IMG/VR virus record: IMGVR_UViG_2579778797_000012
DNA: 33,919 nucleotides
Reading direction: 5' to 3' (one strand)
Origin: a virus
Lineage: Duplodnaviria; Heunggongvirae; Uroviricota; Caudoviricetes
The translations under genes were made by a program, and so were the position numbers. This document shows positions 8,032 to 26,995 of this stretch, piece by piece. Position 1 is the stretch's first letter. Every line of letters starts with the position of its first letter. The notes beneath the pieces were generated by a model. It was not told where the DNA came from, did no database searches, and was given only the letters and a program-made list of their open reading frames with translations.

Positions 8032-8091
8032 CCCACGACAACCATAAATTCTGGCATGACATTTTGTTTGAAAAGCAATAAGTGAGTAATG

Positions 8092-10515: not shown

Positions 10516-10525
10516 GGAGTAGCCC

Positions 10526-10639: not shown

Positions 10640-10683
10640 ATAGCCCGTCATTTCTGCGCTCACACGTCCCAACATTGAAAAAC

Positions 10684-10717
10684 ATGCAAAGCTTTGTAAG
10701 CCGATGCAAAGCTTTGT
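10684..10717. promoter_or_regulatory. Two copies of ATGCAAAGCTTTGT (10684-10697, 10704-10717), each containing the 10-bp palindrome CAAAGCTTTG; candidate protein-binding sites
   Basis: Exact 14-bp direct repeat spaced 20 bp start to start, in non-coding DNA about 75 bp inside the ynfG junction. Confidence 0.35.
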
Positions 10718-11054
10718 GTGTCTCACTTTTGTCCCAATACCAATCCGAATCCACCCTTTGTCATCATTGAGAAATGGCAAGGAAGAAAAGGATGTTACTG
10801 CACGATTTGACAAATCCGCCAGAGCTATCGCATACTGATCGCACTGAACAAATAAGCGGTCTCCGCACCCGATAGCTTTGCGGCTTTTTTATGCCTGCAA
10901 TTTGGCATAGTTACATCCGTACAAAGGTCGGGTGGAGAGGCGTAATACAACACCCGCAAGGGGAATATGCCCAGAGCTTCTTATTTGGCTCAGTTGACAC
11001 CCGACCGCCAGCTACTAACTGGCGGTTATAAACTAAACAAATAAGGAGGTCATC

Positions 11055-11339
11055 ATGACCAGTCAACTCATCCCCGTATTCAACGGTTCTATCTCAAACC
11101 AAGCAGCCCTTCTATGCAATGCTCGCAATCTACACGCTTTCCTTGGGGTTGGTAAACGCTTTGCATCGTGGATAACAGAACGTATTGCTGAATATGGTTT
11201 CGTTGAAAATCAGGACTATATGATTGCTTCCCAAATTCGGGAAGCAAAAGGTAGAGGCGGTCACAACCGCAAGGAATACCACCTCACCCTCGACACAGCC
11301 AAAGAGCTTGCGATGGTTGACGACTGCGTCCAATACTGA
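11055..11339 (+). CDS. Short AntA/AntB-type antirepressor-domain protein (94 aa), paralog of the next gene
   Basis: MTSQLIPVFNGSISNQAALLCNARNLHAFLGVGKRFASWITERIAEYGFVENQDY... resembles the AntA N-terminal domain. Strong RBS (AAGGAGG, 11043-11049). The C-terminus (YHLTLDTAKELAMV) is shared with the downstream paralog. Confidence 0.5.
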   Translation: MTSQLIPVFNGSISNQAALLCNARNLHAFLGVGKRFASWITERIAEYGFVENQDYMIASQIREAKGRGGHNRKEYHLTLDTAKELAMVDDCVQY

Positions 11340-11588
11340 CTATACTCCGCGCCGAGGCCTCGAAAACCTCCCAAAAGCGGATTAAACCAACCCCGTCAGT
11401 GTTGGATTTTTTATGCCTGTTATTCAGTGATAGCACAGTGTGCGGTCACATCCCCGATCAATGTCGGGAGGGCGACGAATACAACACCCGCAAGGGGAAT
11501 AAGTCCGCGGTATCTTTTGGGCCGTTTCGAGCCTCCCGGCACCACATCTTGTGGTGGCATTTCTCGAAAAAAGCCAAAGGAGGTCATC

Positions 11589-12218
11589 ATGACCACTCAA
11601 CTCATCCCTGTGTTTGAAGGTACAATCTCAAATGAACCTACGCTTCTGGTGAACGCGCGTGATTTGCATGGATTTTTAGAGGTAGGTAAAGATTTTTCTA
11701 ACTGGATACGGGCCAGGCTAAACGAGTATGGATTCGTAGAAAATTTAGACTACATTCTATTTTCGCCAAATTTGGCGAAAACTCCAGGCCGCCGCCGCAA
11801 GGATTACCACCTCACCCTCGACACAGCCAAAGAGCTTGCGATGGTTGAACGTAACGAAAAAGGCCGCCAGATACGCCGCTACTTCATCGAGTGCGAAAAG
11901 AAACTTCGCAACATTCAGCCAGTACAAGCAGAACCACAGCCGCAATTCACAGCCGAGGAAATAATCCTCCTCTGCTACATGCAGCTCTGGATGGAAAAAG
12001 CCCAGGACCTTAGCAAGCAGCTGTACCCCATAATGAAAGAGCTGAACTCCTCATACACGAACAAGCTGTATGACATTGCGTTTGAGACTATCTACATGGT
12101 GACGAAGAACAGAGATGTGCTACTGAGAGAGGCGGCACGGCTTGACCAGTCGAGTTTCGTAGTTCAGCGGGCCAGACCAATGCTGAAAAGCCTGCGGGCA
12201 AGACAATTTGAATTCTGA
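11589..12218 (+). CDS. AntA/AntB-type antirepressor-domain protein (209 aa from the RBS-supported start)
   Basis: MTTQLIPVFEGTISNEPTLLVNARDLHGFLEVGKDFSNWIRARLNEYGFVENLDY... RBS AAAGGAGG directly upstream of the ATG at 11589. The track ORF starting at 11427 is an RBS-less upstream extension. Confidence 0.55.
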   Translation: MTTQLIPVFEGTISNEPTLLVNARDLHGFLEVGKDFSNWIRARLNEYGFVENLDYILFSPNLAKTPGRRRKDYHLTLDTAKELAMVERNEKGRQIRRYFIECEKKLRNIQPVQAEPQPQFTAEEIILLCYMQLWMEKAQDLSKQLYPIMKELNSSYTNKLYDIAFETIYMVTKNRDVLLREAARLDQSSFVVQRARPMLKSLRARQFEF

Positions 12219-12222
12219 TACC

Positions 12223-12247
12223 AAAGGAGCTTCGGCTCCTTTTTTTA
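12223..12247 (+). terminator. Rho-independent terminator after the second antA-like gene
   Basis: GGAGC-TTCG-GCTCC hairpin (12226-12239) followed by a 7-T run. Confidence 0.7.
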
Positions 12248-12414
12248 TACCTGAACGACAACGCCGCTGAAATCGAAGAGTTAATACAATAAAGAGAAGA
12301 GCTCAGTACATTAGATAAACATTTTTTATCATTATCTCATTGCCTTTATTCAAAAAAATAGTTACATAACGTTACTAGGTAAAATGCAAACCCTCGCTAT
12401 TTTTATCAGATTGT

Positions 12415-13641
12415 ATGCCGGTAACTATAACAAAAATCAGAACTGGAGAAGATGTTTTGTCAGCAGCCATTCACCGCATTGAATGGTTGTTTGAAACATT
12501 CTCTTCTGTATGTTTATCTTTTTCTGGCGGTAAAGATTCCACTGTACTTTTCCATCTTGTAGCCGAAGTGGCCTACAGGAAGAAACGTCGTTTTTCTGTA
12601 TTGTTCATTGACTGGGAAGCCCAGTATCAATGCACCATTGATCATATACAGAAGATGCGGATGATGTACCAAGATGTAACAGATACCTTTTACTGGGTTG
12701 CACTTCCCCTGACGACAGTAAATGGTGTCTCGCAGTTTCAGCCTGAGTGGATATGCTGGGAGCCCGGTGTAGAGTGGGTTCGACAGCCACCGGAAGATGC
12801 TATTACTGATATGGCGTATTTCCCCTTTTACCGCTACGCCATGACTTTTGAAGAATTTGTCCCAGCTTTTTCTTCCTGGTTCGCAAGTAACCAATGTAGC
12901 GTGGCAATACTGACTGGAGTCCGCGCGGATGAATCTCTTAACAGATTTATGGGACTGGTTTCCCAACGAAAACTGAGATATGCAGATGATAAACCCTGGA
13001 CCACGGCGTCACCTGAAGGTTTTTACTACACCATGTATCCGCTGTATGACTGGAAAACCAACGATATCTGGGTATATAACGCTAAAACCTGTGCAATCTA
13101 CAATCCTCTGTATGATTTGATGTACCGTGCAGGCATTCCTCTACATAATATGCGTGTCTGTGAGCCTTTTGGCCCGGAACAGCGTAAGGGACTATGGCTT
13201 TATCATGTTCTGGAGCCAGAAACTTGGGCACGGATGTGTGAACGAGTATCTGGTGCTGCCAGTGGGGCTCTTTATGCCAATGAAAGCGGGGCCTATTTTG
13301 CCCTGCGTAAACGGATGTCAAAACCATCCCATCATACATGGCGCAGCTATGCGTTCTTCCTGCTGGACGTAATGCCGGAAAGAACGGCTGAACACTACCG
13401 CAACAAGATAGCAGTCTACCTGCGCTGGTATCAGAACCGGGGATTCCCGGATGATATCCCGGATGAACAGGAAAATGATCTGGGCTGCCGGGATGTTCCC
13501 TCCTGGCGACGTATTTGTAAGACTCTCATAAAGAATGATTTCTGGTGCCGAACGCTCTCCTTCAGCCCCAACAAACCCCGGCACTATGAACGTTACCTGC
13601 AGCGTATGAATGAAAGGAGGAAGGAATGGGGAATTCTGTGA
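12415..13641 (+). CDS. ibrA: PAPS-reductase-like (PP-loop ATP pyrophosphatase fold) protein, IbrA/YbdN-like
   Basis: 408-aa ORF with the PP-loop motif SFSGGKDS near the N-terminus and a long C-terminal extension. Overlaps the downstream ParB-like gene by 16 nt. Gene symbol assigned by family resemblance only. Confidence 0.6.
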   Translation: MPVTITKIRTGEDVLSAAIHRIEWLFETFSSVCLSFSGGKDSTVLFHLVAEVAYRKKRRFSVLFIDWEAQYQCTIDHIQKMRMMYQDVTDTFYWVALPLTTVNGVSQFQPEWICWEPGVEWVRQPPEDAITDMAYFPFYRYAMTFEEFVPAFSSWFASNQCSVAILTGVRADESLNRFMGLVSQRKLRYADDKPWTTASPEGFYYTMYPLYDWKTNDIWVYNAKTCAIYNPLYDLMYRAGIPLHNMRVCEPFGPEQRKGLWLYHVLEPETWARMCERVSGAASGALYANESGAYFALRKRMSKPSHHTWRSYAFFLLDVMPERTAEHYRNKIAVYLRWYQNRGFPDDIPDEQENDLGCRDVPSWRRICKTLIKNDFWCRTLSFSPNKPRHYERYLQRMNERRKEWGIL

Positions 13642-14270
13642 CACCAGAGGTGGAGGTGCTGAGCAAGATGATTCGACAGTACTTCAGTCAGGAACAATCT
13701 GAAGAGAAAACCATACAGGCCCTGAACCATCTCCGCTGCGTACTCCATGAGATCAGCCCCTTTGCTCAAGAACCAGTGGACTGTGTGCTGTGGGTAAAAG
13801 CGGATGAAATTGTCGCTAACGATTATAATCCCAATGTCATGGCCCCAAGCGAAAAAAAATTACTGAAACAATCTCTGGAAAAAGACGGTTTTACTCAACC
13901 AATTGTTGTTTCGGAAGAAACAAGCCATTACCTGGTGGTGGATGGTTTTCATAGGCAGTTACTAGGTAGAAGAACAGTTACTGGAAAACGCCTGAAAGGC
14001 TGGCTACCAGTAACCTGTATTAATCCAGACCGAAAGGGACAAACCTCACGTATTGCCGCGACTATCCGACATAACAGAGCCAGGGGGAAACACCAGATAA
14101 CCTCAATGTCTGATATTGTCAGAGATCTTTCACGTCTTGGCTGGACTGATGAACGTATCGGAACAGAACTGGGGATGGACCAGGATGAAGTTCTGAGGTT
14201 AAAGCAGATTAGCGGGCTAACGGAGTTATTTCAGCAGGCAGATTTCAGCCCTGCATGGACTGTTACATAA
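13626..14270 (+). CDS. ibrB: ParB/sulfiredoxin-fold (ParB-like nuclease domain) protein, IbrB/YbdM-like
   Basis: 214-aa ORF with a DGFHR motif (VVDGFHRQLLG) typical of ParB/Srx-fold proteins. Strong RBS AGGAGG at 13615-13620. Translationally coupled to the upstream gene. Confidence 0.6.
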   Translation: MGNSVTPEVEVLSKMIRQYFSQEQSEEKTIQALNHLRCVLHEISPFAQEPVDCVLWVKADEIVANDYNPNVMAPSEKKLLKQSLEKDGFTQPIVVSEETSHYLVVDGFHRQLLGRRTVTGKRLKGWLPVTCINPDRKGQTSRIAATIRHNRARGKHQITSMSDIVRDLSRLGWTDERIGTELGMDQDEVLRLKQISGLTELFQQADFSPAWTVT

Positions 14271-14358
14271 AGTTAGGTTAGGCCTGTGGAGCCGGGGAAT
14301 CGGAATTAAACATCTTCCCTCCCCGGTAAATACAAATAAGGGCTGAACATCATCCCGA

Positions 14359-14883
14359 CTACCTCAGATCACCTAATAATATATCAAGATTATTTTGCGC
14401 ATTAATGCTATTCGCCATTACTGTTGCTGCTTCTGGCAACTTTCCAAGAGCAATAAATATATTCTTAAGGCTGATTGGAATTGATGAACCATGCGGATCG
14501 CGCCACTCACCGCAAATTCTGTGAGTTTCATCACAAAGCCTGAACGCATCCCAACCTCCATATTGACCAAAAATTATGTCCATTGACTCTATTTCTGCGG
14601 GCGATAACTCCCCCAGCTCATCAACAGAAGAAAATGTACGCCACATTTCAACCTTATGATCCGCTACATCAGATATCCATGATTCCCACGGACTGTACTC
14701 GTTTTCACTTCCATCCTTAACCAAAGAATATGTCTGCGATAAAACGGGTCCTTTGTTCATAGAGAAATAATGATCACCACTAATGGGAAAACCATACAAC
14801 TCCATTGCTTTGCGGTCAGAGAGATACATCAGCTTAATGAAACGCATAGATCCGCCATGTTTTTTCAGCAAATACGCTGCCAT
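14359..14883 (-). CDS. DUF4065 (Panacea/SocA-like) domain protein
   Basis: 174-aa ORF. FIKLMYLSDRKAMELYGFPISGDHYFSMNKGPVLSQTY fits the conserved KLqKLLY...GPV core of DUF4065 antitoxin-like proteins (from memory of the family profile). No strong RBS at the annotated start. Confidence 0.5.
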   Translation of the reverse strand: MAAYLLKKHGGSMRFIKLMYLSDRKAMELYGFPISGDHYFSMNKGPVLSQTYSLVKDGSENEYSPWESWISDVADHKVEMWRTFSSVDELGELSPAEIESMDIIFGQYGGWDAFRLCDETHRICGEWRDPHGSSIPISLKNIFIALGKLPEAATVMANSINAQNNLDILLGDLR

Positions 14884-15033
14884 TTACGCAACTTTTTCTT
14901 CATTAAACATAAATCGGCTCTCTGTCTCACATGAAATACTCTTTCTGACTATATGTTAATAGCTCCGGTTATTACAGGTTAATGTGTGTTTATTTCTTAA
15001 TCAGCCCCGCACTTCCGTACGGGGCCATTTCTG

Positions 15034-18000
15034 TTAATCCACTCCCACTTTTTTGTTGTACTCGCGGTTAAAGCGATCCACGGCAACCTTCATATCCCGC
15101 TCTACCGATTTCACCATCGCCGCCTGCTGCGCCAGACTGAGAGAACTGTCGGCATAAATGGCATCGCGCTGTTTGCGCAAATCCTTCAGTCTCTTCCGGG
15201 TATCCTGCATAAGCCCGTTCATCAACAATTTTCCGTTGTTCTCGTCAATGAACGCCGTTCTTTCTGCACCGGTCAGACTCTTCAGCTCTGCGTGATACTG
15301 CGCAACCTCTGTCATCCGGTCGTACATCTTCTGCTGGTCTGCATACGGCATCACCTCACCCGAAATTTTCCCCAGGAAGGGCACCTGCTGCTCCGGTATA
15401 TCAATACCGTTCAGCGATTTCACCGCCGCATCTGTGGTTTTGGAAATGAAGCGCCCTGTCCCTCCGGAGATATAGTCAATCCAGAATTTCAGCGATTCCG
15501 GTGTGATATCCACCGCGCCGGGACGATACTGGCTGCCACCTGAGAACGCATTCAGCCAGGATGCAAACGCCTTGTACGCCTCAGGCGTTGAACGTCTGCC
15601 CAGCTGGCTGTCCGGTTTCGGTGTGCCAAATGGCATGTTCTCCTGGTAAATCTGCGCCCCCATGAAGTTTTCATTCATGGCAAGGTTCGCAAACGGACGC
15701 AGAATGGTCGGCGCTGCATTTTTCAGCAATGCCCCGGACAGTGTTTCCGACGTTTCACTGCCCACAGGACTGAATGCCCCCAGGATACCACCGACAACAT
15801 TACCGGCAGCACGTGAAGCAGTCAGGTCGCCCGCTGCCACACCTTCAGCAGTATGCCCGAGCAGGAAGAAAACGTTGTACCCGTAAGGCAGAGGAATACT
15901 CCAGTACTCTCCGGCCTTGCCCCCGAACACCGATTTCATAATGACGAGGTTACGCTCTTTCACATGAGACGGCACCTTGTCATACCAGTTAACCCCGTCA
16001 TCATCCTCCCCCGCAACACTGCGGTTAAGCGAGCCAAGCAGATAACCCGCTCCCACAGCTGCAAGCGCGATTTTCTGCGGTACATTGAGATTCTTCCAGC
16101 GAAGGCGCTCCGGTAACGGCCCGTCGCCATTAAGATGTCCGAGCGTTCTCACCAGGTTTGCGGTCCCCTGAATGCTGGCGTTGGCAAACATATACAGCGA
16201 GTTCATCAGCGCTCCCTGCTCACCACGACGGTTAAAGTTCACCGTCATGTTTTTGGCAAGAGATGCCGCCTGCTGGCGTGACAAACCGGCATCACGGGCG
16301 TGTTTATAGGCAGAAAGACGCAGAGCGTTTTCAACCGCGCCGTTGGCATCCTCGACCAGGTTCAGGAACGAATGCCATGCACCGATACTCTGGCCTTTCC
16401 ATCCTCCCTTCGCCAGCGATACAAGGCGATCCATTTCCTTCTGCTGGCCTTCAAGGTCACCCATGTTAAACCAGCCGGTTTTACCTCCGTCCTCAACAAA
16501 CTCTTTCCACACCTTCTGCCACTGCGCACCGTTGCCCGTGAGGGTTTTACCACGCAGACTGGCGTATACGGCAGACATGGCAGACCGGCTGTCTTTCACC
16601 ACAGCCAGGGCGGATAAGTTATCCAGCCCTTTCAGTTTACCGTCGCTCCTTCCCTGCTCCGCCTTCAGGTTCATCACCGCCGTCTGCACGTCACGGATGA
16701 AGTTACTGACCAGGAATTCCGGGTTATACGACGTGTTCACCGTTGCCAGGAAGCGGTTAACTTTCCCCAGCGTGCGGATTACGGCGTTACTGGTTTCCGG
16801 TCCCATATTCTTCATCGCACGCATCAGGCGCGGATCATGGAGTTTGATGTAGTACGTTTTGCCGTTCTTTTTGGTGGTGAAGTACCGGTCTGCCATCATT
16901 GCCATCGGTACAGGACGTTCGACAACTTCGTGACGGGTTTCACCGGTTTCCGGAACAACACGCTCTGCAATCGCACGCATGGTGTCCGGTCGCTCATTGG
17001 TGAATACCTGCCAGTAATCCTTGTCTGGATTATCCTGTACCAGTTTCAGGAAGGCGTTACCTACTTCATTTTTGCGATTGCGGATCAGCGATTCGCTCAA
17101 GTCCTGTATCGCCTGAGTGGACGGAGACTGTGCGCGGGATGCACGCCCCATGGCCTGCCTGCTTTCACGTCCGCCGATAGTGAAGCCTTTACCTGTACGG
17201 GGCAGTGACACCACACCGTCAACATCCTGGCCTTTCAGAGGAACGTAGTAACGGTAGGCGTTCTGCCAGGCATCCACCACACCGCTCTCTTCCAGTCCGG
17301 CCTCACGGATAAGCTCACGGCGACGGGCCAGCATATCGTCAACAATCCCTGCCAGACGGTCATACTGTGCCTGTTTGCCACTGTTACGCACACGCTGCAT
17401 GATTTCCGCCGCTTCCGCGTTGGTCATCCCCGAACCGCCGTCCGGCATTTTCGGGTTGATTTTCGCGATATGCGCGTTACGTTCCGGCGCGTGACGGGCG
17501 TAGAGGTACTCATCCAGATCGGCCTGCGCAATTTTGTAGTCCGCCAGTAATTTAGCCAGCGGCTGAACATAGCGCTCCTTCATCACGTTCAGGTCGTTTT
17601 CCGCCTTCCCGTGGAAGAGTTCTTCCGCCATATAAGCGTTGTTACTGTCGTCTATTTTTCCGCCAGTTTTACGGATATTCTCCTGAACAGCTTTCAGCAC
17701 CTGGAATTTATCCTGCATCTGGCGCACAAAACGCGATGCAATTGTCTCTTCCGGTGTCAGACTGCTGGTACGGGAGTAATGCGGCCCCTTGCGAATATCT
17801 TCAGGATAGAGTATTTTATCCGCAGAGCCGCGATAAGAATGTTCCCCTTTGGGCAATTGGAGTCCTCTGTGCAGAAGGTTATCGCGGCTTAATTTTTCTC
17901 TCCGGTACAACGTTAACCCGGTCATTTCCATACTCTTCAGTTTTTTTCCATTTTCTGTACCGTAAACAGAAGCTACCTTGTTGATTTCCAGACGCGACCG

Positions 18001-21000
18001 GACAGCCTTCATGTGTACCGCTGACACCACCGGATCACCATTTTTATCCACGGCATCAAGCAGCATCACAACCGCATTTCTTTCTGTCGCTGAGTGGTAA
18101 ATTGCATCCGGATCGTGCATCAGTTCCGGTAGTCTCTCGATAACATCCATCGGCACCACATGTTTCACACCATTGGTGGCCTTACGCACAGTGTCGCGGG
18201 AGATAACCAGCGGCAAATCTGGTGCGCCAAGGTGACGCAATACCGGCGGCGTACGCCCGATGTTTACCGTTAAATCCGTTGAGCGCAGAGACTTCATCAT
18301 TCTGGCAAGGTCATCACGATAACGCTCGCCCTCACCTTCCGGCACTTTGAACGGATCAGGCTTACCGCTACGGGAGTACTGAGACGATGCGCCAGCGCCA
18401 TCCTCACGCGGCGTGTAACCTTCCCGCACACGCTGGCCTAACGTGCGAATAGTTTCGCGAACAAGTCTGATATCGTTCAGCTCTGTCGGCTTCAGTAACC
18501 CCGTGCGACGCAGTACCCCTTTGACCAGGGCAACAACACGCTCCCACGCCGCCACAAATTTATTCGGCTGTTTCTCCGCCATATGTGCCAGAAATTCACC
18601 CGCCTGCACTTCCGGTGATTCCTTACCATAAGACGCATCAACCTTACGCCAGGCTTCACGGATGGTGGCGTTATCACTGTCACGGGTTTTCAGCACGGTC
18701 TTAATAATCGTCTGATATTCCGCTGGCGTGACTACATGCTCCATTGCATGGTGGATAATCTCGTGACGCAGCTTCTCGCGAACGGTCCGCCCGTCAGGAA
18801 TGTTATCCGCCACCAGGACAATTTCACGTTTATCCGGACGATAGAACGCATGCCCCCTGCCGTAACCGTCGAACGATTCACCCGCCAGCGCTTCAGCCTC
18901 TTTCTGTGACTTCACCACGCGGACCTTCAGGTCACTGTCCTTAATGCCACTCATCACGCCACGGGCAACCGCTTCAACCTGCGGGACCGGGCTGCCTTTG
19001 GCTTCCGCACTGCGGTTAACATCCGAAATGAGATTGCCTTCAGGTGTGCGGGTCACGCCCTTACGGGAATAAAACGCAACGCCCTTGTCCGTCTCACGGG
19101 TTTTCAGCGTACTGAACAGGTGATCGAATGCATCACGAATACCGCCATCCAGTTCCGCATTCGTCGGATAAGCCCAGGTGTTATCTGTGTTGTGCTCAGG
19201 TGCCTTACGGATATTGACCAGATAATCATTCTCCACGCCAGCCGTACGCGCTTTATCCTGAACATAACGCTCAAAGGCACGCGCCGCCATTTCAACATCC
19301 GTTGACCAGTACGGTTTTGAGCGCACCTCATCGAGAAGCGCTGAACGACGCGGCATGTCACTGCTGTTGATCGCTTTCATCACGCCTTTAAACGCGTCGT
19401 AAACCTCCTGACGTACCGGATATTCCGCATCAACATATCTGCCGTCTTTAAATACGCGCCCGGCACGCTGTGCTTCCGTCATATAGTCGCCACCTGACGT
19501 GATCTTCCCGTCAGTGGAAACATCATAACGACCAAAATAATTATCCAGTGAATGGAACCATTCGTGGGCCAGCGCCCCCGGTCCGTTACCTTTTGTCAGG
19601 TTGATTGCCACCTCACCCGGCTCATAGTGTGCCGCCGCCTTACCCTTACCACGGGCACCAAAAGCAAGCCCAAGACGACCGTTCAGAGAAAGCGCTTTTG
19701 TCGGCACGTTCAGCACATCAGCCAGGTCATGCAGCGAGTCATAAGCCCGGTTCAAATCAGCCTGACGACGCGGACCTTCCACATAATTACCAAACTGCAC
19801 ACCACGAAAACCAAACGCATCACTGAACTGCTCCGGCGAAACATCCCCCTTGCGGCGTTCTGGTCCGGTACGATCGCGGTTGGTGGCGTTACGCTGCTCC
19901 TCACGCGAAATCTCCCGCATCTCCTTCACATGACGAACAAGCTCATCACGATGTGAATCAATGTACTTACGCGCATCACTGGCTGACTTAAAGCCACCTC
20001 TCACCCGCATTTTGTTTTTGCCATAAGCGATAAAAATATCGCCACTGCGGGTATTCCGGTAAACGTCAAAGCGGATTTTGTCATCCGGTGACGGTGCCGT
20101 TTTTTCATCTCCTTTCGCCTGTGACTTTTCCTCCAGCTCTGCAAACCAGACTTTCGCCTTTGTCAGTAATTCATCCCTGCTTTCCGAGAAAAAGAGGTTA
20201 GTCCCCTTATTGTCCTTATTGCGCAGTGAATAAAGTTTCTGTGGCGGATCGTAACGCTTCCCTCCTGCCGCCTGATACACACCCGATACCACCCGATAAG
20301 CAGAAGCCTTGTCCATCTGTGAGGGTGGCAGAGTGCGTAACAGTTGCCAGGTATCCGCGTAACGGGAGGGCATTCTGCCTTCCATCCATTCTGCGAGGCG
20401 TTTCGCGCTGACCGTTCCGTTCAGCATTTCCGATACACTGTGTCGTACTTTTTTTACGCTCTCCCCCCAGCCAGCCGTATTGTGTTTCGTCTTCGCCGGA
20501 ATATCGCTACGATACAGCGCTATCATTGCCAGGGTGTCAGCATCAGCCCCTTCGCTCGCCAGTTTTGCGTAGTCCGGTTTCGGGAACAGTTTGCTCAGCG
20601 GCTGCGTGGCATAATCCCTGTCTTCCAGCGTTTTACCCAGTGTTTCAGCAAGCTGTGCATAACGGTGTTTTGCCGCGCCCTTAATTTCTTCACCAAAGTC
20701 TTCAATTTTCGCACCACGCGCCTGCTGGTGAGTGCTCGGTTTATCTACCGGCATCGGCACCTCAGTATCCGGAACATCGGTTATGGTCTGGCGATTATCC
20801 CCGGTCTGTCTGCGTGCTTCTGCCTGCTGTGCCAGTTCCGGAAGGGAGTCACGAACCATACGAGGGAGTGATTCAGGCTGTGGCATATCAACCCCACGCT
20901 GACTTTCAGGTGCAGGAAGTCCTTCACGCACTGGTGCTGTGGCGTTCTGCTCATCCGGTGACGGCAGACCACGACGAACCGGTTCGCCCTCCAGTATTTC

Positions 21001-23397
21001 CCCCCGGCGACCAGCGGCATTTTCCGGTGCCTGCGCACGTCCTTTCTGGAAACTCTGGCCCTTCACCTCACCGGTTGTGGTAAAACGACCACCACGTCCG
21101 GCCTGATTTTCATCCGGCGTACGCGCCACTTCTCCCGGTAACGGATATCCCTGTCCGGGATGAATATCGCCGGGAGCGGGAAGGCGTGGACGCTCAGTTA
21201 ACTCCTGAGCTGTCGGACCGGCATCACCTTCAGCCATCTGTGAACGCACCAGCTCTTCCGCCGTCGGCACGTTGCCACGGGCAAGGCGGGCCTGCACTTC
21301 TGTATCATCTCCCGTAAAACCCCGGAATCGCGGGTCACGCATGAACGCTGGCTGCTCCATCGGATCAGCATCAGCAATACGCTCTCCGTCAGCCAGGGTG
21401 TTAATGGTTTCCGTTGCCACATCTTCAGAGAACGCAGGATTATCCATTTCAACGGCATACTGATTCTCACCTTTCTTCACTACGGACGGTTTCAGGCCGG
21501 TGGCGCTGGCATTGCGAAAAACATCGCTACCCATGGCGCTTTTCTCATCCGTGAAATAACGGTTGTCCGGACGCACCTTTTCAATGCGTTCTGCTGGTCT
21601 GGACGCACCACTCCCGTTAATTTCAATACGAACTTCATCCGGATCGCGGAACCGCACCGTCGGGTAAATACTCCCGTCGCCATCATCCGCATTTTCCGGC
21701 TGTGGCTGTGCCTCCGGTCTGGCCTCCTGCTGAGGGCGAAGCACATCACGGATAGCCTGTAACTGCTGCTCTTCAGTATCAGTACGCCCTTCCTTCAGGC
21801 TGAGTTTTCGGTATTCCTCAAGCAGTTCAGGGCGCGGCTTCGCCTTCAGCTCATCCATTACCGCCTGTCGCTTCGCCTGTTCATCCAGTTCATTCAACAG
21901 CTGGCTGGCGGCTTCCCGGCGATGAACGGCAGACGTGTCTCCCTCATGTGCCATATCCGCATCAGCATACTGTTCCAGAAGCTGCTCGCGATTCATCCCC
22001 TGCATGGATTCACGATGCTGTGCCACCGGATCAACCGGTTCGGGTTGCGGGGCTGCGTCGTCCTGCTGCACGGTTTCAGCATCACGCATGGCTGCTTCTT
22101 CTGCGGCCTGACGTCTGCCACGATATCCGGCAACCGCACCGAATGGAGCCCCCATCGCAGCACCAAAGGCTGCACCTTCGATCGTTGCGTCAGCCACGCC
22201 CTCCCACGGTGACACATCCATTCCGGCGGTCTCACGCAATGCCGTGTTTTCCTGATAGCGCGAATAGGCGTTCTGTGCCCCGTTAATTACGCCCTGTTCC
22301 GTGGCATTTCTGACAATGCCGCTTTTAACGGTCTTCGCTGTGCCTCGTGTCACCAGATTAAACAGTTGTGCGTCACCCAGTTTTGCCGCCATGGCATTCA
22401 CAGCCAGCAATTCAGGATCGGTTGCCAGCTGCGCGCGCACCTCATCGGCAACACGCTCTTTTGCCAGGTCCATTTTCTGGCGATCAGTAAGCTGTGCGTG
22501 CTGTGGATCTGCATCAATTGACAAAAACGTCTGCTGAAATTTCGGTGACTGCGCCAGCTCAGCGTAATCCGCATTAAGAACAGCATCTGCTGCCGACATT
22601 GCACTCTGCCCCTGTGCACTGGCTGTGGAATGGGTGATCAGGCCCGCATGGAAGAAATCCGTCATTTTTTTATCGACAGCTTCTGCTGCCAGTGCCGTGG
22701 CTCTTTCCGGCTGCACTCCTGCCGCGATGTATTTTTTCTCCAGCCCGGCGGTCAGCGTTCTTTTCAGTGCGACCTGTCCCACCTTTCTAACCACACCGCC
22801 AGCAACCAGATCAGGTACAAGCGCACCAATCAGGTTTACACCCTTCGTCAGCAAGACCGCAGAATCATCATAGCCTTCACTCATTGGCGTGTTCAGCGCA
22901 CGAACAGCACCCGGCGACATCTGATCTGTCAGCCATTCATCCGAGGCTTTGGCACCATCACTGACTGCCTTACCGGTTGCTTTCAGACCTTCACCGACAG
23001 TATCAGTGACCGCGTTTTTACCTGTTCCATCGGGAATGTTTTTAATCGCATCTCCAACAGAAGGTGGCGCGCCCAGTTCCTTTTGCGTGGAGGAAGGCGG
23101 CATGTAAACATCCGTCATGAAAGACGACAACCCGGCAAGCGTTTTTACAGGATTATTTACAAATCCATCACCGAGTCCACGGACCATCTCCCCTGTTCCC
23201 CGGACGGACTGGGCGAAACCTTTACCCATTGTTGGCAATACATCACCGAGGCTGAACGATGTGCTGTGATCAATGGCATTCTGCGGGTTGCTGAAAAAAT
23301 CCTGCCAGTAATTTTCTCCCGGCTGCTTAATGTTCAGGCTGCTGCGGTTCTGGTTACCCAATTGCGCTTCAGGGCGCTGCTCATCTGAAAAAGCCAT
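15034..23397 (-). CDS. Giant multidomain protein (2,787 aa) with two HExxH metallopeptidase-like motifs; putative phage polyvalent or effector protein
   Basis: Single uninterrupted ORF with GGAG 8 nt upstream of the ATG. HEWFH at nt 19552-19566 (about residues 1278-1282) and HEIIHH at nt 18748-18765 (about residues 1545-1550). Low-complexity A/Q/E/P-rich N-terminal third. Function inferred only. Confidence 0.6.
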   Translation of the reverse strand: MAFSDEQRPEAQLGNQNRSSLNIKQPGENYWQDFFSNPQNAIDHSTSFSLGDVLPTMGKGFAQSVRGTGEMVRGLGDGFVNNPVKTLAGLSSFMTDVYMPPSSTQKELGAPPSVGDAIKNIPDGTGKNAVTDTVGEGLKATGKAVSDGAKASDEWLTDQMSPGAVRALNTPMSEGYDDSAVLLTKGVNLIGALVPDLVAGGVVRKVGQVALKRTLTAGLEKKYIAAGVQPERATALAAEAVDKKMTDFFHAGLITHSTASAQGQSAMSAADAVLNADYAELAQSPKFQQTFLSIDADPQHAQLTDRQKMDLAKERVADEVRAQLATDPELLAVNAMAAKLGDAQLFNLVTRGTAKTVKSGIVRNATEQGVINGAQNAYSRYQENTALRETAGMDVSPWEGVADATIEGAAFGAAMGAPFGAVAGYRGRRQAAEEAAMRDAETVQQDDAAPQPEPVDPVAQHRESMQGMNREQLLEQYADADMAHEGDTSAVHRREAASQLLNELDEQAKRQAVMDELKAKPRPELLEEYRKLSLKEGRTDTEEQQLQAIRDVLRPQQEARPEAQPQPENADDGDGSIYPTVRFRDPDEVRIEINGSGASRPAERIEKVRPDNRYFTDEKSAMGSDVFRNASATGLKPSVVKKGENQYAVEMDNPAFSEDVATETINTLADGERIADADPMEQPAFMRDPRFRGFTGDDTEVQARLARGNVPTAEELVRSQMAEGDAGPTAQELTERPRLPAPGDIHPGQGYPLPGEVARTPDENQAGRGGRFTTTGEVKGQSFQKGRAQAPENAAGRRGEILEGEPVRRGLPSPDEQNATAPVREGLPAPESQRGVDMPQPESLPRMVRDSLPELAQQAEARRQTGDNRQTITDVPDTEVPMPVDKPSTHQQARGAKIEDFGEEIKGAAKHRYAQLAETLGKTLEDRDYATQPLSKLFPKPDYAKLASEGADADTLAMIALYRSDIPAKTKHNTAGWGESVKKVRHSVSEMLNGTVSAKRLAEWMEGRMPSRYADTWQLLRTLPPSQMDKASAYRVVSGVYQAAGGKRYDPPQKLYSLRNKDNKGTNLFFSESRDELLTKAKVWFAELEEKSQAKGDEKTAPSPDDKIRFDVYRNTRSGDIFIAYGKNKMRVRGGFKSASDARKYIDSHRDELVRHVKEMREISREEQRNATNRDRTGPERRKGDVSPEQFSDAFGFRGVQFGNYVEGPRRQADLNRAYDSLHDLADVLNVPTKALSLNGRLGLAFGARGKGKAAAHYEPGEVAINLTKGNGPGALAHEWFHSLDNYFGRYDVSTDGKITSGGDYMTEAQRAGRVFKDGRYVDAEYPVRQEVYDAFKGVMKAINSSDMPRRSALLDEVRSKPYWSTDVEMAARAFERYVQDKARTAGVENDYLVNIRKAPEHNTDNTWAYPTNAELDGGIRDAFDHLFSTLKTRETDKGVAFYSRKGVTRTPEGNLISDVNRSAEAKGSPVPQVEAVARGVMSGIKDSDLKVRVVKSQKEAEALAGESFDGYGRGHAFYRPDKREIVLVADNIPDGRTVREKLRHEIIHHAMEHVVTPAEYQTIIKTVLKTRDSDNATIREAWRKVDASYGKESPEVQAGEFLAHMAEKQPNKFVAAWERVVALVKGVLRRTGLLKPTELNDIRLVRETIRTLGQRVREGYTPREDGAGASSQYSRSGKPDPFKVPEGEGERYRDDLARMMKSLRSTDLTVNIGRTPPVLRHLGAPDLPLVISRDTVRKATNGVKHVVPMDVIERLPELMHDPDAIYHSATERNAVVMLLDAVDKNGDPVVSAVHMKAVRSRLEINKVASVYGTENGKKLKSMEMTGLTLYRREKLSRDNLLHRGLQLPKGEHSYRGSADKILYPEDIRKGPHYSRTSSLTPEETIASRFVRQMQDKFQVLKAVQENIRKTGGKIDDSNNAYMAEELFHGKAENDLNVMKERYVQPLAKLLADYKIAQADLDEYLYARHAPERNAHIAKINPKMPDGGSGMTNAEAAEIMQRVRNSGKQAQYDRLAGIVDDMLARRRELIREAGLEESGVVDAWQNAYRYYVPLKGQDVDGVVSLPRTGKGFTIGGRESRQAMGRASRAQSPSTQAIQDLSESLIRNRKNEVGNAFLKLVQDNPDKDYWQVFTNERPDTMRAIAERVVPETGETRHEVVERPVPMAMMADRYFTTKKNGKTYYIKLHDPRLMRAMKNMGPETSNAVIRTLGKVNRFLATVNTSYNPEFLVSNFIRDVQTAVMNLKAEQGRSDGKLKGLDNLSALAVVKDSRSAMSAVYASLRGKTLTGNGAQWQKVWKEFVEDGGKTGWFNMGDLEGQQKEMDRLVSLAKGGWKGQSIGAWHSFLNLVEDANGAVENALRLSAYKHARDAGLSRQQAASLAKNMTVNFNRRGEQGALMNSLYMFANASIQGTANLVRTLGHLNGDGPLPERLRWKNLNVPQKIALAAVGAGYLLGSLNRSVAGEDDDGVNWYDKVPSHVKERNLVIMKSVFGGKAGEYWSIPLPYGYNVFFLLGHTAEGVAAGDLTASRAAGNVVGGILGAFSPVGSETSETLSGALLKNAAPTILRPFANLAMNENFMGAQIYQENMPFGTPKPDSQLGRRSTPEAYKAFASWLNAFSGGSQYRPGAVDITPESLKFWIDYISGGTGRFISKTTDAAVKSLNGIDIPEQQVPFLGKISGEVMPYADQQKMYDRMTEVAQYHAELKSLTGAERTAFIDENNGKLLMNGLMQDTRKRLKDLRKQRDAIYADSSLSLAQQAAMVKSVERDMKVAVDRFNREYNKKVGVD

Positions 23398-23409: not shown

Positions 23410-23437
23410 AAAAAAAAGCCCGACACGATGGTCGGGC
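23410..23437 (-). terminator. Rho-independent terminator 13-40 nt upstream of the giant ORF start
   Basis: Minus-strand GCCCGAC-CATCGT-GTCGGGC hairpin (23418-23437) followed by T8 (complement of the A-run at 23410-23417). Confidence 0.7.
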
Positions 23438-23482: not shown

Positions 23483-24745
23483 TTACTTCATCCAGCCTCT
23501 GATCTCTTCGGCTGATGCAGCAGCGCTATAATTCTTCGCTTTTTCCTGTTCGGCTTTTTTATCCCGGAGGTGATTCTGGTACCAAATTTCCAGTTCCTTT
23601 TCACGCCCCGGTTCCAGCAAGGCTGGCATATTGGCGGCAGTCGCTTTGACAAACTCCAGTTTGACCGGATCGCCCTCCGCCCAGGTCTGCCCCTTCTGTA
23701 AAAGCTGTTCAAATTTCTGTTGCTGAATTTTCTGCTGATATTCCGGTAAACCATGCGCAGCTAAAAATTCATCCCTCGCAGCCTGAGCATTACCGCCGTT
23801 CTTGATCGCTTCCGCTGCTACCTGGCTGGCTTCTTTCTGAATATCTTTCAGAGAAAGCCCCTCCTGCTTCGGCGTGAAATAACCGAAATTTTTCGAAATT
23901 TCCGCGAATTTACTGCGATCCCTGACAAGCTCAACAGCCTTATCAACAGGCACCGCCAGCACGGTTTGATCATCAGGGTGCGCACTGCCGTATTCTGTTA
24001 CAGGTTTATGCGCGGTGGAGCCATCGCTGTATGTGAGATCAAGGCCAATAAGTACGTACCCTTCCTGCTGCGCCGGTACGATACTGCCAATCCTGGCCTC
24101 TTTTATCGTTTTTTCCCCGGTTGAATCAGGCATGCCAATACGCTGTTGTAGTTCCGGGGCAAACACGCCGGAAAGCACATCGAGATTTTCCGGGGTATTC
24201 AGCGAAGCAATCGCCCTGTCCGGCTTATCATCAAAGATTTTCTGCAGGTTGTTCACGGCCTGACCCGCTTTCGCAGCATAGCCTACCGTTGACATCATCT
24301 TAAGCGGATTGGCGTCCGATAATTTACCGAACAGATGAGAAGCCGCATCATGGTCACCCGCATCAATCGCTTTTCCCAGCGCCGCCATCACAGGCTGATC
24401 GCGCGCCAGCATATCGTTATACTCAAGCCGTCGCTGGTTGTATTTCTGCAACTGGAGTCGTTGCTGTTCCATCCCCAGCGACGCATTCCGGTAATTCTGG
24501 TTGGCGTTAAACTCCCTTTCCTGCAGTGTGTAATTGCGGTCATCAACTTTGGCTCTGTAATCAAAGTTCCGCTGATCAACGTCTTTATTATGTTCAAACT
24601 GAGACTGCGCAAATTCAAAATCGCGCTCGTTATTTTTCTGTTGCTGAGCAAGCTGTGCTTCTCGCAAACCAAGCTCCTTACGACGGGTCATTGCCTGGTC
24701 AACAGTGCTGAATCCGGCAAGTAACCCCTGTGCAAATCCGCTCAT
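23483..24745 (-). CDS. Hypothetical protein, Q/E/K-rich coiled-coil-like (420 aa)
   Basis: Long ORF, tightly packed with neighbours. Composition (QQQK, EQEKAK runs) suggests coiled coil. No recognisable catalytic motif. Confidence 0.45.
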   Translation of the reverse strand: MSGFAQGLLAGFSTVDQAMTRRKELGLREAQLAQQQKNNERDFEFAQSQFEHNKDVDQRNFDYRAKVDDRNYTLQEREFNANQNYRNASLGMEQQRLQLQKYNQRRLEYNDMLARDQPVMAALGKAIDAGDHDAASHLFGKLSDANPLKMMSTVGYAAKAGQAVNNLQKIFDDKPDRAIASLNTPENLDVLSGVFAPELQQRIGMPDSTGEKTIKEARIGSIVPAQQEGYVLIGLDLTYSDGSTAHKPVTEYGSAHPDDQTVLAVPVDKAVELVRDRSKFAEISKNFGYFTPKQEGLSLKDIQKEASQVAAEAIKNGGNAQAARDEFLAAHGLPEYQQKIQQQKFEQLLQKGQTWAEGDPVKLEFVKATAANMPALLEPGREKELEIWYQNHLRDKKAEQEKAKNYSAAASAEEIRGWMK

Positions 24746-24755
24746 TCACCACTCC

Positions 24756-25007
24756 TTAAAACAACGAACCAGCAAGACCACCGATGACTGCACCAATAGC
24801 GGCACCGGGAAGGCCACCAACGGCAGCCCCCACAGCAGCACCGCTACCAATTCCCGTTCCAATATTCTGCTTGTGCTGTGCTTTCTGTTGCGCCGCCATC
24901 ATCTTGTTTGACGCCTCAATTTCTTCACGTCGTCTGTCTGCATCACTTATTCCCTGTAATGCCTCACGCCGTGACTGATTCGCAATATCCAGTAAACCGT
25001 ATCCCAT
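24756..25007 (-). CDS. Hypothetical small protein with C-terminal glycine-zipper membrane segment (83 aa)
   Basis: C-terminus GIGSGAAVGAAVGGLPGAAIGAVIGGLAGSLF is a glycine-zipper-type hydrophobic segment. 9-10 nt gaps to both neighbours. Confidence 0.45.
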   Translation of the reverse strand: MGYGLLDIANQSRREALQGISDADRRREEIEASNKMMAAQQKAQHKQNIGTGIGSGAAVGAAVGGLPGAAIGAVIGGLAGSLF

Positions 25008-25016
25008 ATTTCCTCC

Positions 25017-25469
25017 TTACGCTGACACCAGTTGTCCGCCAACACTCAGTTGCTGTCTTGCAGGTGCAGAAGCCCCCGTCAGTATGTTCATCTGACGATC
25101 CTGCTCTGCTTCACGGATACCATTTTTCGCGCCAGCAATTGCCAGGGCATTACGTAACCCCAGCGTATTACTGTTGGGATTATCAGGTCGGTTAACGCCA
25201 TATCGTGCCATCTGGTTATCCTGCGCCATCTGCGCTGTACGGAGACTGGAAGTGGCAAGGCCGCCCACCCGGGCAAGCTGCGCATTCATCAGGCTGTTGT
25301 TCTCGCCAAGGTCAGCCAGCCTTGCCACGCGGGGCAAATATCTGGTTCGCCAGTCGTCGTATTGTTGGCGTGTCAGCGCTGCTGACGTCTGCCAGTCACC
25401 CTGTGGGCGGGCTGCGCCTGAATAACCAGCCCTTGCGAGAGTTTCGTATTTACCGTACTCCATAATCAC
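25017..25469 (-). CDS. Hypothetical protein (150 aa), Q/A/R-rich
   Basis: ORF overlapping the start of the upstream gene by 4 nt (translational coupling). No recognisable domain. Confidence 0.4.
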   Translation of the reverse strand: MIMEYGKYETLARAGYSGAARPQGDWQTSAALTRQQYDDWRTRYLPRVARLADLGENNSLMNAQLARVGGLATSSLRTAQMAQDNQMARYGVNRPDNPNSNTLGLRNALAIAGAKNGIREAEQDRQMNILTGASAPARQQLSVGGQLVSA

Positions 25470-26122
25470 AGTCTCCAGTTCTGAGCCTGATGCTGAATGG
25501 CATTAGCGCCGGTGCCAGGTGTTTTAGCACCGCCACTTCCTCCGCTACCGCCAGCCTTATGCATCGCATATGCACCAACCGCACCCAGACCAGCGCCAAC
25601 AAGAGAGGCTCGCCCCTGCTGTTTCGTAAACGCAGCCTGTGCGTCCGATTTAGCTTTTGCCAGACTGCTGTCTGCCAGCGAGTTAAAACTCTGTAACGCA
25701 TCTGCCTTCTGACCGGAACCGAGAGCCGCAACATCCTGTAGCCCGGCAATATATTTATCTGCCTGCGATACCTGCCCCCGTGTGGTCGTGTCAATCTGCC
25801 CGATCACCTGGTCGCTTTGATTTGCATCCATTACTGCATTAAAACGACCACTGGATGGGTCAACGCCGGACTGAGCAAGATTACCCGCCAGCTCCCTTCG
25901 CGCTTCACCAAACTGTTTCTGATACCCAAGATTTGTTGTGCCTGCGATATTTTCGTACTGCTGCTCACTGTTAAGGTCATCGACCTTTTTCATGAAGTTA
26001 TCTTCTGCCGGACGGAGAATATTTTTGTAATCCTGCCACCCTTTCCAGGCCACCTCTTCCTGTGCTATTTGCGCTGCTGTTGGTTTTACTTTGGTATCAC
26101 CACCACCTTTACTTCCGCCCAT
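25466..26122 (-). CDS. Hypothetical protein (218 aa), G/A/Q-rich with Gly-rich termini
   Basis: Starts MGGSKGGGDTK and ends in a GAGLGAVGAYAMHKAGGSGGSGGAK segment. First gene of a tightly packed four-gene set. Confidence 0.4.
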   Translation of the reverse strand: MGGSKGGGDTKVKPTAAQIAQEEVAWKGWQDYKNILRPAEDNFMKKVDDLNSEQQYENIAGTTNLGYQKQFGEARRELAGNLAQSGVDPSSGRFNAVMDANQSDQVIGQIDTTTRGQVSQADKYIAGLQDVAALGSGQKADALQSFNSLADSSLAKAKSDAQAAFTKQQGRASLVGAGLGAVGAYAMHKAGGSGGSGGAKTPGTGANAIQHQAQNWRL

Positions 26123-26140: not shown

Positions 26141-26162
26141 AAAAAACCCTGCCGGAGCAGGG
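26141..26162 (-). terminator. Rho-independent terminator downstream of the 133-aa gene
   Basis: Minus-strand CCCTGC-TCCG-GCAGGG hairpin (26147-26162) followed by T6 (complement of 26141-26146). Confidence 0.65.
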
Positions 26163-26215
26163 TCAGAATGTGAATTGCAATGTGGGTTTACGCTCGATGA
26201 TGAATACAGTGGCAG

Positions 26216-26617
26216 TCAGACTGCTATCCTGAACACCATGAAGCCATCCTCATCATCCGGCATTCGCTCAAAGCCCAGACGTTTTCCCAGCCGGATAAAT
26301 CCTCGTCTTGCCGTATGAAATTCGGCCCAGCGTCCGCCAGCCAGGCGGGTTAATGTCTTCACCTCCGGCAGATAACGCTCAACACTCTTACTCCCCGTAC
26401 ACACGCCCAGTAACACCAGAACATAAGGGATACCATCGTCACTGAGCACAGAACGCAGCACCAGAAAACCATCCGGCGCTTCAAAGCAAAACGCCTGCTT
26501 TTTAAGGCAGGCGTCTTTAACTTCATTCATAAATTCAGGGTTGCGGGAATTTCTCACAACACGCTGCATATACCGGAGAATTTTGTCGTCCATTCTCTCA
26601 CCTGAAACGGGTGCCAT
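26216..26617 (-). CDS. Hypothetical protein (133 aa), independently transcribed moron-like gene
   Basis: ORF bracketed by intrinsic terminators on both sides. No signal peptide and no recognisable motif. Alternative start at the internal Met (MDDKILRY). Confidence 0.45.
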   Translation of the reverse strand: MAPVSGERMDDKILRYMQRVVRNSRNPEFMNEVKDACLKKQAFCFEAPDGFLVLRSVLSDDGIPYVLVLLGVCTGSKSVERYLPEVKTLTRLAGGRWAEFHTARRGFIRLGKRLGFERMPDDEDGFMVFRIAV

Positions 26618-26995
26618 ATCGGCTGAACCTCAGCAACCAGTTGACGGGGACTTTCGTCCCCGTCGCGGTTTTCCTACTGCTTACACTGTAAGAACGCCGC
26701 AAACTCCGCTCCCCACAAATTCAGCCGGAACTCACACAACGAGCCGTGTAACATCCAGATGGTGAAGATTACCGTCATACAAATTGTGACGGTGATGAGC
26801 GATTTTTGCGACATAACGCTTGTCTCCTGAGTGGAGAGGCGCTAACCTACTACTTGTGAAGGTTGTACGGTCAGGGCCTCGGGTTAACATTAAAGTTGAC
26901 TCGGGGCCTTTCCACATCAGGCCTTCAGGTTCACCTTCCAGCCATCAGCCGAAAGGCACCCGCGCATAATCTACGATTTTTGCCCTGCACGGGCA

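Follow-up and report, generated by a model that had tools for sequence, protein, structure and literature searches.

A cysteine-free gene cassette after the tail genes of a phi24B-type prophage as a probable ejection-protein module

Introduction

The closest described relatives of the locus considered here are found in the short-tailed phages phi24B and Sp5. The locus is a block of five genes, four small and one very large, in a 33,919-nucleotide (nt) stretch of tailed-phage DNA (IMG/VR record IMGVR_UViG_2579778797_000012; Caudoviricetes), which we call the window throughout. We name the four small products p218, p148, p83 and p420, the 2,787-amino-acid (aa) product of the fifth gene the giant protein, and the five genes together the cassette. 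phi24B gp47-gp51 and Sp5 ORF76-ORF80 are direct homologues, that is, the same genes in the same order with 77-97% amino-acid identity, and the main facts about the cassette have already been published for these near-identical phages. Neither paper, as far as we found, gives the four small proteins a function beyond a tail-formation label in the Sp5 study. We argue that the cassette is probably an ejection-protein ('E-protein', or ejectosome) module, and that it forms the last late-operon block of a short-tailed temperate phage of the 933W/phi24B type.

The structure and proteome of the phi24B virion were reported in a 2026 preprint (bioRxiv 10.64898/2026.04.10.717836). The capsid has T=9 geometry, and the tail model consists of the portal, two adaptor rings, the nozzle, six fibres and the needle, and nothing else. 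In the proteome table, the giant gp47 (2,811 aa) is present at about 19-35 copies per virion, the p420 homologue gp48 (421 aa) at 30-56, the p148 homologue gp50 (148 aa) at 36-73 and the p218 homologue gp51 (218 aa) at 22-41; the structure of each is entered as 'ND'. The main text of the preprint proposes gp47 as the sole ejection protein and leaves gp48-gp51 unmentioned.

In Sp5, the corresponding genes were deleted in frame by Mondal et al. in 2016 (PMC5155283). ORF76, ORF77, ORF78, ORF79 and ORF80 encode proteins of 218, 148, 83, 421 and 2,793 aa, respectively (PMC5155283 supplement). Deletion of ORF79 or ORF80 gave zero plaques and zero lysogens and could be complemented in trans, and both mutants showed normal DNA packaging and normal-looking heads. 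Deletion of ORF76 markedly lowered infectivity (PMC5155283).

Ejection proteins are best described in P22, T7 and N4-like podoviruses, whose operons share a grammar of three slots, of 196-240, 431-982 and 609-1,337 aa (review PMC8954989). P22 injects about 12, 12 and 30 copies of its ejection proteins (PMC8402733). The giant protein of the N4-like phage DEV has been shown to be an ejection protein, and the same study describes cysteine depletion as a mark of ejection proteins that cross the periplasm (PMC11445570).

Results

Five closely spaced genes conserved in Stx phages

All five cassette genes lie on the minus strand, in the order p218 (25466..26122), p148 (25017..25463), p83 (24756..25007), p420 (23483..24745) and the giant gene (15034..23397). 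An earlier reading of this DNA, made from the sequence only, had pointed to the four small open reading frames (ORFs), and all of them are present where it placed them. For the second gene, the program-made ORF runs from a GTG at 25469 (25017-25469, 150 aa). The ATG at 25463, which gives 148 aa, is the more likely start, because the homologues in Sp5, ArgO145 and phi24B are annotated as 148 aa and a TGGAGA ribosome-binding site precedes it. The three gaps between the small genes are then 2, 9 and 10 nt (the first becomes a 4-nt overlap with the GTG start), in line with the tight packing that had been described, and a Shine-Dalgarno-like sequence stands ahead of each cassette gene. Between p420 and the giant gene there are 85 nt, which hold a terminator-like hairpin followed by eight T residues (23418..23437, minus strand); another terminator-like hairpin with a T-run lies just upstream of p218 (26145..26164, minus strand).

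The four small proteins are rich in Ala (12-18%), Gly (6-18%) and Gln (7-10%), and residues 50-82 of p83 match the Pfam family Gly-zipper_YMGG (PF13441; E 5.5e-7, 29.6 bits against a cut-off of 28.9). These counts bear out the compositional bias and the glycine zipper that the sequence-only reading had noted. Its label 'low-complexity' was right as to bias but overstated, as p420 is predicted to fold with confidence (see below).

Each of the four matches a PHROG family labelled 'unknown function' (families 611, 596, 594 and 601; E 1e-41 to 1e-189), including p218 with family 611 at E 3.5e-119 and p148 with family 596 at E 2e-83; p218 also matches phrog_8003, 'virion structural protein'. At the DNA level the cassette region is 80-95% identical in 186 phage records, which come from Shiga toxin (Stx)-converting and related Escherichia or Shigella podophages. 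The PHROG matches and this DNA identity indicate that the four ORFs are real genes and not chance ORFs.

Homologues in phi24B virions and Sp5 mutants

The amino-acid identity to the phi24B counterparts is 95.4% for p218, 96.6% for p148, 86.7% for p83, 77.4% for p420 and 91.3% for the giant protein. Presence in the virion outside the resolved shell and tail holds for the homologues of p420, p148, p218 and the giant (77-97% identical), and the p83 homologue gives a weak signal. For these close homologues it has been shown that they are housed within the T=9 head, each at tens of copies, and belong neither to the shell nor to the tail. A need for infectivity without a packaging defect is seen in Sp5 for the homologues of p420 and the giant, partly for that of p218, and not for those of p148 and p83; the first two have been shown to be indispensable for infection and dispensable for DNA packaging. 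Diffuse density in the adaptor and tail lumen of phi24B vanishes in ejected particles, of which the preparation contained about 36,000 beside some 52,000 full ones (10.64898/2026.04.10.717836); this is the one indirect hint that cassette proteins are expelled.

The sequence-only reading had likened the small proteins to internal virion or ejection proteins, and had named virion proteomics as a check. The phi24B data agree with it, as gp47, gp48, gp50 and gp51 are present in the virion proteome, and further support comes from Sp5 genetics and from the synteny described below. Its suggestion that the adjacent giant protein is a candidate for injected cargo is supported as well: gp47 is abundant in phi24B virions and absent from the structural model, and ORF80 is essential.

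Position of the cassette in distant phages

About 100 Vibrio phage records contain p218 and p420 homologues, and the Aeromonas phage phiARM81mr also has a p218 homologue. In Vibrio phage D288 and in phiARM81mr, six proteins, namely p133 (encoded just upstream of the cassette in the window), p218, p148, p83, p420 and the giant, are all pairwise homologous and stand in the same order as in the window, and this six-gene block comes straight after the genes for nozzle and needle. The needle gene of ArgO145 and phi24B is followed by two small genes, lom and a 133-aa gene, then by the four genes and the giant gene. As nothing separates the cassette from nozzle and needle in the Aeromonas and Vibrio phages, the Stx-phage genes lom, hok and two other small ones are insertions. 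The four genes had been described as standing outside a head or tail module, after a lom-like gene, which is correct locally but does not hold in lom-free relatives. By this comparison, the cassette evidently is the distal end of the structural operon.

The solved virion closest to that of phi24B is the one of Ralstonia phage GP4 (10.64898/2026.04.10.717836). Behind its nozzle gene come, in order, a gene for 106 aa, one of the GNAT family, gp71 (277 aa), a PAPS reductase-like gene, gp69 (509 aa) and a giant gene for 3,224 aa. GP4 gp71 is homologous to p218 (reciprocal PHROG matches, 8e-9 and 4e-10) and ends in a p83-like glycine zipper, and gp69 and p420 open with one and the same Gly/Phe-rich motif. 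Internal proteins are not covered by the data of the GP4 capsid paper.

Absence of cysteine

The five cassette proteins of the window have no cysteine in 3,656 residues, against 1.26% in 12 other window proteins (P about 8e-21). The cassette proteins are also Cys-free in ArgO145 and in the Aeromonas, Vibrio and GP4 phages, where the interspersed enzymes and the p133-type gene product contain Cys. Among diverse members of the p420 family, 121 of 123 are Cys-free, with 0.012% Cys over 58,944 residues. The same holds for reference ejection proteins: P22 gp7, gp20 and gp16, T7 gp15 and gp16 and N4 gp50, gp51 and gp52 lack Cys, whereas P22 gp14 and T7 gp13 contain it. The absence of cysteine from the cassette would fit unfolded passage through the tail and the oxidising periplasm.

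p218, p148 and p83 and their likeness to P22 gp7

p218 starts with MGGSKGGGD, carries GGSGGSGG close to its C-terminus and has a Gly-rich hydrophobic segment at residues 172-190. The p148 and p218 families align by hhalign with 93% probability (E 3e-7, 101 columns). To judge from this alignment, p148 and the p218 core are paralogous, and p148 lacks the hydrophobic tail; the relationship is new in this analysis.

We compared these proteins with a profile of the P22 gp7 family built from eight P22-like phages. Aligned with it, the combined p218/p148/GP4-gp71 profile gave E 1.1e-4 at a probability of 56%, with about 180 columns in collinear order, though both profiles have little depth (Neff about 2.7). 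The score, 36.3, lies above the column-shuffle null (11.0 +/- 2.0; 0 of 120 shuffles reached it) and above the reversed profile (14.5). P22 gp7 loses its first 20 residues by cleavage (GenBank note), so that GGKGGAD (positions 22-28) starts the mature protein; the APSE-1 homologue starts with MGGSSGD and GP4 gp71 with MGGKGGGD, which together with p218 suggests a shared motif GGxKGGxD. At the other end, the last 18 residues of P22 gp7 (TPWGAAIGGGIGLLGSLF) and of p83 (LPGAAIGAVIGGLAGSLF) are 67% identical, both at the extreme C-terminus, although glycine zippers are compositionally simple; hhalign of p83 with the gp7 C-terminus gave a probability of 89%.

Homology of p218, p148 and p83 to gp7 is therefore probable but not proven, because the Pfam model for P22 gp7 is missed and glycine zippers are simple in composition. 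At the profile and motif level, the three proteins together would resemble a split P22 gp7 ejection protein, a likeness also new in this analysis. Comparison of p148, p218 and p83 with N4 gp52, T7 gp13, T7 gp14 and P22 gp14 (hhalign) gave nothing significant, and p218, p148 and P22 gp7 had no match among PDB sequences (phmmer).

p83 has a polar N-terminal helix and a C-terminal glycine zipper ending in GSLF, and is a candidate membrane-inserting peptide. The aromatic end of the zipper may act like the C-terminal signal of outer-membrane proteins, which, if true, would be notable as BamA is the receptor of these phages. In several records the p83 gene is annotated 'bacteriocin'. We rejected this label: the match to Pfam Bacteriocin_IIc (PF10439) reaches 18.4 bits (E 0.0022), under the cut-off of 27.1, and the setting is a virion module, not an export or immunity locus as a class IIc bacteriocin would suggest.

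p420, a family without a known fold

p420 opens with a conserved G-x-L-A-G-F motif. An AlphaFold2 model based on 100 sequences (predicted local distance difference test score, pLDDT, 85.7; predicted template modelling score, pTM, 0.53) predicts a single helix at residues 2-128, a helical region, a beta-sheet domain at 213-266 and C-terminal helices. The first helix, of 127 residues, would be about 190 Å long, by arithmetic at 1.5 Å per residue, and the small alpha/beta domain (213-266) holds the residues that are conserved most strongly.

The p420 family comprises 555 clusters at 50% identity (E<=1e-3), and 100 diverse members scanned with Pfam had no family in common. Searches against known proteins were likewise negative: p420 had no match among PDB sequences (phmmer); the family showed no significant similarity to N4 gp51, T7 gp15, T7 gp16, P22 gp20 or P22 gp16 (hhalign); a first model of p420 found nothing in the PDB at E<0.001 and returned its own family alone from BFVD (Foldseek). 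Nor did we see any sequence, profile or fold likeness to the tunnel proteins, namely PF16928 Inj_translocase (P22 gp20), T7 gp15 and DEV gp72, nor to N4 gp51 or to another solved structure. The family is without a Pfam entry and without a known fold, which is new in this analysis.

The C-terminal third of p420 (23483-23850, minus strand) has only 42-60% identity to phi24B, against 95% or more for p218 and p148. In addition, some Stx phages match p420 only from residue 82 or 105 onward (tblastn). By analogy with P22, where mutations that escape SieA map to the ejection proteins gp20 and gp16 (PMC10461980), this mosaicism would fit selection by exclusion systems.

The giant protein

The giant protein matches the Pfam families LPD38 (3.5e-48), LPD5 (2.3e-45), LPD1 (2.1e-23) and MuF_C (1.7e-17). 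By its domain content it is a polyvalent protein in the sense of Iyer et al. (2017), in which several LPD or effector domains are joined in one very large protein; such proteins are predicted to be packaged and injected effectors (PMC5512222). Of the giant protein, only the C-terminal region matches the PHROG 'DarB-like antirestriction' (E 6e-30), and relatives are annotated likewise. Its last 900 residues are conserved. Hydrophobic segments lie at residues 181-199, 406-424 (glycine-zipper-like) and 2443-2461. With relaxed Pfam thresholds, the unannotated stretches gave sub-threshold hints of Gly-zipper and Peptidase_M76 only. The GP4 giant (3,224 aa, 9050-18724) has an N-terminal SLT lytic transglycosylase domain (E 4.5e-10). 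The phi24B preprint takes MuF-C for a metallopeptidase with a role at the cell wall; we rejected this assignment, as Iyer et al. (PMC5512222) define MuF-C as a PBECR RNase-like domain.

Comparison with P22, N4-like phages and T7

As in podovirus ejection operons, the cassette genes run from small through medium to very large after the tube, nozzle or needle genes. The sequence-only reading had named synteny with characterised ejection operons as a check, and the placement in Aeromonas, Vibrio and Ralstonia phages does parallel that in P22, T7 and N4.

In P22 the order is needle-gp14-gp7-gp20-gp16: in both, a small Cys-containing gene is followed by Cys-free genes for about 220 and 420-470 aa and then by a larger gene, and copy numbers are of the order of 10-70 per virion. 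p218 has the N-terminal motif of mature gp7, p83 has the C-terminal zipper of gp7 ending in GSLF, and the p218/p148 profile aligns with the gp7 family as described. In contrast to P22, the gp7-like unit is here apparently split and duplicated into p218, p148 and p83, the Pfam families P22_gp7 and Inj_translocase are unmatched, similarity of p420 to gp20 is a 9-residue N-terminal motif at most, and the last gene encodes a polyvalent protein of 2,787 aa in place of the 609-aa gp16.

The N4-like phages (Schitoviridae; N4 gp52-gp51-gp50, DEV gp73-gp72-gp71) share the N4-gp56 family of capsid proteins and T=9 geometry, as well as an operon end with a protein of about 150 aa, an all-helical one of middle size and a virion protein that lacks Cys and reaches about 3,000 aa or more. 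They differ in that sequence or profile similarity to the cassette is absent, the giant carries LPD38, LPD5, LPD1 and MuF_C instead of RNA polymerase domains, there are two extra small proteins here, and p420 has a beta-sheet domain and so is not all-helical.

In T7 (gp13, then gp14, gp15 and gp16), the cluster also follows the tail-tube genes with rising gene size, gp15 and gp16 are Cys-free, and the N-terminal lytic transglycosylase of gp16 is matched by the GP4 homologue of the giant. On the other hand, sequence or fold similarity to T7 is absent, an SLT domain was not detected in the giant of the window, and an ordered internal core as in T7 is not reported in the phi24B map (10.64898/2026.04.10.717836).

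The prophage and its surroundings

The window covers the late end of a 933W/phi24B/Sp5-type short-tailed prophage adjoining ynfF. In ArgO145 and phi24B, the common late-gene order is terminase, portal, capsid, adaptors and tail fibre, then nozzle and needle, and in ArgO145 the giant gene adjoins attR at the end of the record. In the window, the nozzle gene (567 aa) lies at 30047-31750 and the needle gene (422 aa; Pfam Phage_Tail_Tip) at 28782-30050, both on the minus strand; their phi24B homologues, gp57 and gp56, were resolved as nozzle and central needle. Similar prophages at the ynfG site, which they interrupt, were found in 16 complete E. coli genomes, with a top identity of 97%. The one examined closely, in SW071611, has terminase, portal and N4-gp56-type capsid genes upstream. 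In the same prophage (39355-40812), the lateral tail-fibre gene is annotated as incomplete and an IS1 adjoins lom; because of these two features, some members of the ynfG-site lineage may be defective. The matching part of the present prophage falls outside the window.

The p133 gene (26216..26617, minus strand) encodes a conserved 133-aa protein with three cysteines, and the Aeromonas and Vibrio phages have p133 homologues at the corresponding place. Its homologue had zero peptides in the examined part of the phi24B proteome table, and p133 may be a non-virion assembly factor. We found no likeness between the p133 family and either the P22 gp14 family or the GP4 gp72 acetyltransferase (GNAT), and p133 can be compared with P22 gp14 and T7 gp13 by position only.

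A 61-aa ORF (26732-26917, minus strand; product MSQKSLITVTICMTVIFTIWMLHG...) lies between lom and the 133-aa gene, with terminator-like hairpins on both sides. It had zero Pfam matches in a scan at E<=0.001, and in relatives its position is annotated as Hok/Gef family or MokW-like host killing. A gene at 32594-33706 (minus strand), upstream of the nozzle gene, encodes 370 aa with a YadA-like membrane anchor; we take this protein to resemble Eib-type trimeric autotransporters. Near the other end of the prophage stands a gene pair for a PAPS-reductase/DUF3440 protein (12415-13641, plus strand) and a ParB_N-like protein (13626-14270, plus strand), annotated as IbrB-like in a relative; the pair presumably resembles the IbrAB regulators of eib. 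A PAPS reductase-like gene is found within the cassette of Ralstonia phage GP4 too. Directly downstream of the giant gene, a gene at 14359-14883 (minus strand) encodes a SocA/Panacea-domain protein (Pfam E 2.5e-19), which may be antitoxin-type or defence-related cargo.

Positions 1-10515 of the window are host DNA, with two 808-aa molybdopterin oxidoreductase paralogues (ynfE and ynfF), a GNAT protein and a UPF0257 protein. The same part holds short ORFs of 285 aa (MR/MLE-type) and 143 aa (ADH_N only) and a transposase helix-turn-helix fragment at 576-977.

Discussion

If the cassette is an ejection module, it would work as follows. Once the central needle is released, the cassette proteins would exit by way of the tail before the DNA does and reassemble as a passage through the cell envelope. 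p218, p148 and p83 would together form the split equivalent of the P22 gp7/T7 gp14-type component, with their Gly-rich hydrophobic ends entering the outer membrane or envelope; p218 in particular is proposed as the envelope-inserting protein. p420, with its helix of some 190 Å, is a candidate conduit or adaptor, a periplasm-spanning component of the gp20/gp15/gp72 type. The giant protein, proposed to be internal and ejected, would occupy the slot of gp16 and of the N4 virion RNA polymerase, reach the inner membrane and bring its effector domains into the cytoplasm.

Several observations weigh against this reading. Exit from the capsid and formation of a channel are inferred steps, and the head genes of this very prophage lie beyond the window, although related ynfG-site prophages carry terminase, portal and capsid genes. 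The p83 homologue of phi24B, gp49 (83 aa), reached a signal of 6, where the others had 82-179, and the authors judged it a contaminant because it is annotated 'bacteriocin' (10.64898/2026.04.10.717836). ORF77 (p148) and ORF78 (p83) fall outside the nine essential genes of Sp5 (PMC5155283). At relaxed Pfam thresholds, including the unannotated stretches, no peptidoglycan hydrolase or SLT domain was found in the giant of the window. Neither p218 nor p83, nor GP4 gp71, matches the Pfam family P22_gp7 (PF25688) at E<=0.1, a family that does match the gp7 proteins of P22, APSE-1 and Lumpael. Finally, the Sp5 study called ORF79 and ORF80 tail-formation genes, because an anti-fibre antibody failed to label the mutant particles (PMC5155283), and unlabelled particles are not predicted by a pure ejection role.

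The best-surviving alternative is that the small proteins sit inside the head and serve to load, organise or chaperone the giant effector there, so that the cassette would deliver anti-defence cargo like the Dar proteins of P1 and build no DNA conduit. The DarB-like match in the giant's C-terminal region speaks for this, as does the prediction that polyvalent proteins are injected effectors (PMC5512222). In phi24B the proteins seen are all internal and similar in copy number, and p148 and p83 are dispensable in Sp5. P1 Dar proteins, in turn, are dispensable on non-restricting hosts. ORF79 and ORF80 of Sp5, however, are essential even for K-12-grown phage on K-12, where there is no restriction barrier (PMC5155283), which weakens the case for a purely Dar-like role. 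Moreover, a short tail of 22 nm requires some conduit and no other candidate genes are left in the module, and the gp7-like ends together with the SLT domain of the GP4 homologue suggest penetration of the envelope. We therefore consider this alternative unlikely.

The conclusion of the Sp5 study, that ORF79- and ORF80-type proteins serve to assemble or complete the tail, seems more improbable still. It rested on DNA-filled heads of both mutants that an antibody against the tail fibre left unlabelled, a negative immunogold result given as 'data not shown' (PMC5155283). The phi24B model explains the whole tail without these proteins, which are abundant in the same preparation (10.64898/2026.04.10.717836), and given this complete tail model we rejected the tail-formation reading of ORF79 and ORF80. 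Cys depletion and gp7-like features would also be unexpected of chaperones, and the candidate chaperones p133 and P22 gp14 contain Cys.

The view that the four are unrelated accessory (moron) genes beside lom, for instance a bacteriocin and its partners with no virion role, which the sequence-only reading had kept as its alternative, draws on the annotation of the 83-aa gene, its weak Bacteriocin_IIc match and the nearness of lom, hok and other morons, but that match is below its cut-off, the cassette order is kept in distant phages without morons, three of the four proteins are abundant in phi24B virions, and one of the four genes is essential and another important for infection in Sp5, so that proteome, genetics and distant synteny effectively refute it and we find it scarcely credible.

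Returning to the cassette as an ejection module, a wider reading is possible, though we hold it to be doubtful: the cassette could be a true, expanded homologue of the P22 E-protein operon. One ancestral ejectosome module would then link P22-like, GP4/Stx-like and perhaps N4-like podoviruses, with the gp7-type part either single (P22, GP4 gp71) or split and doubled to give three genes, and with a last slot open to gp16, a virion RNA polymerase or a polyvalent effector of about 2,800 aa.

The analysis proposes a function for four 'hypothetical' genes found in hundreds of prophages of enterohaemorrhagic E. coli, and corrects the misleading 'bacteriocin' label of one of them. The absence of cysteine offers a simple marker for picking out the ejected proteins of new podoviruses. 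Shiga toxin genes are spread by short-tailed Stx phages, and how the DNA of these phages crosses the envelope is what the cassette may explain. If this is true, the five proteins would be natural targets of superinfection exclusion, and would also decide which strains can become toxin producers.

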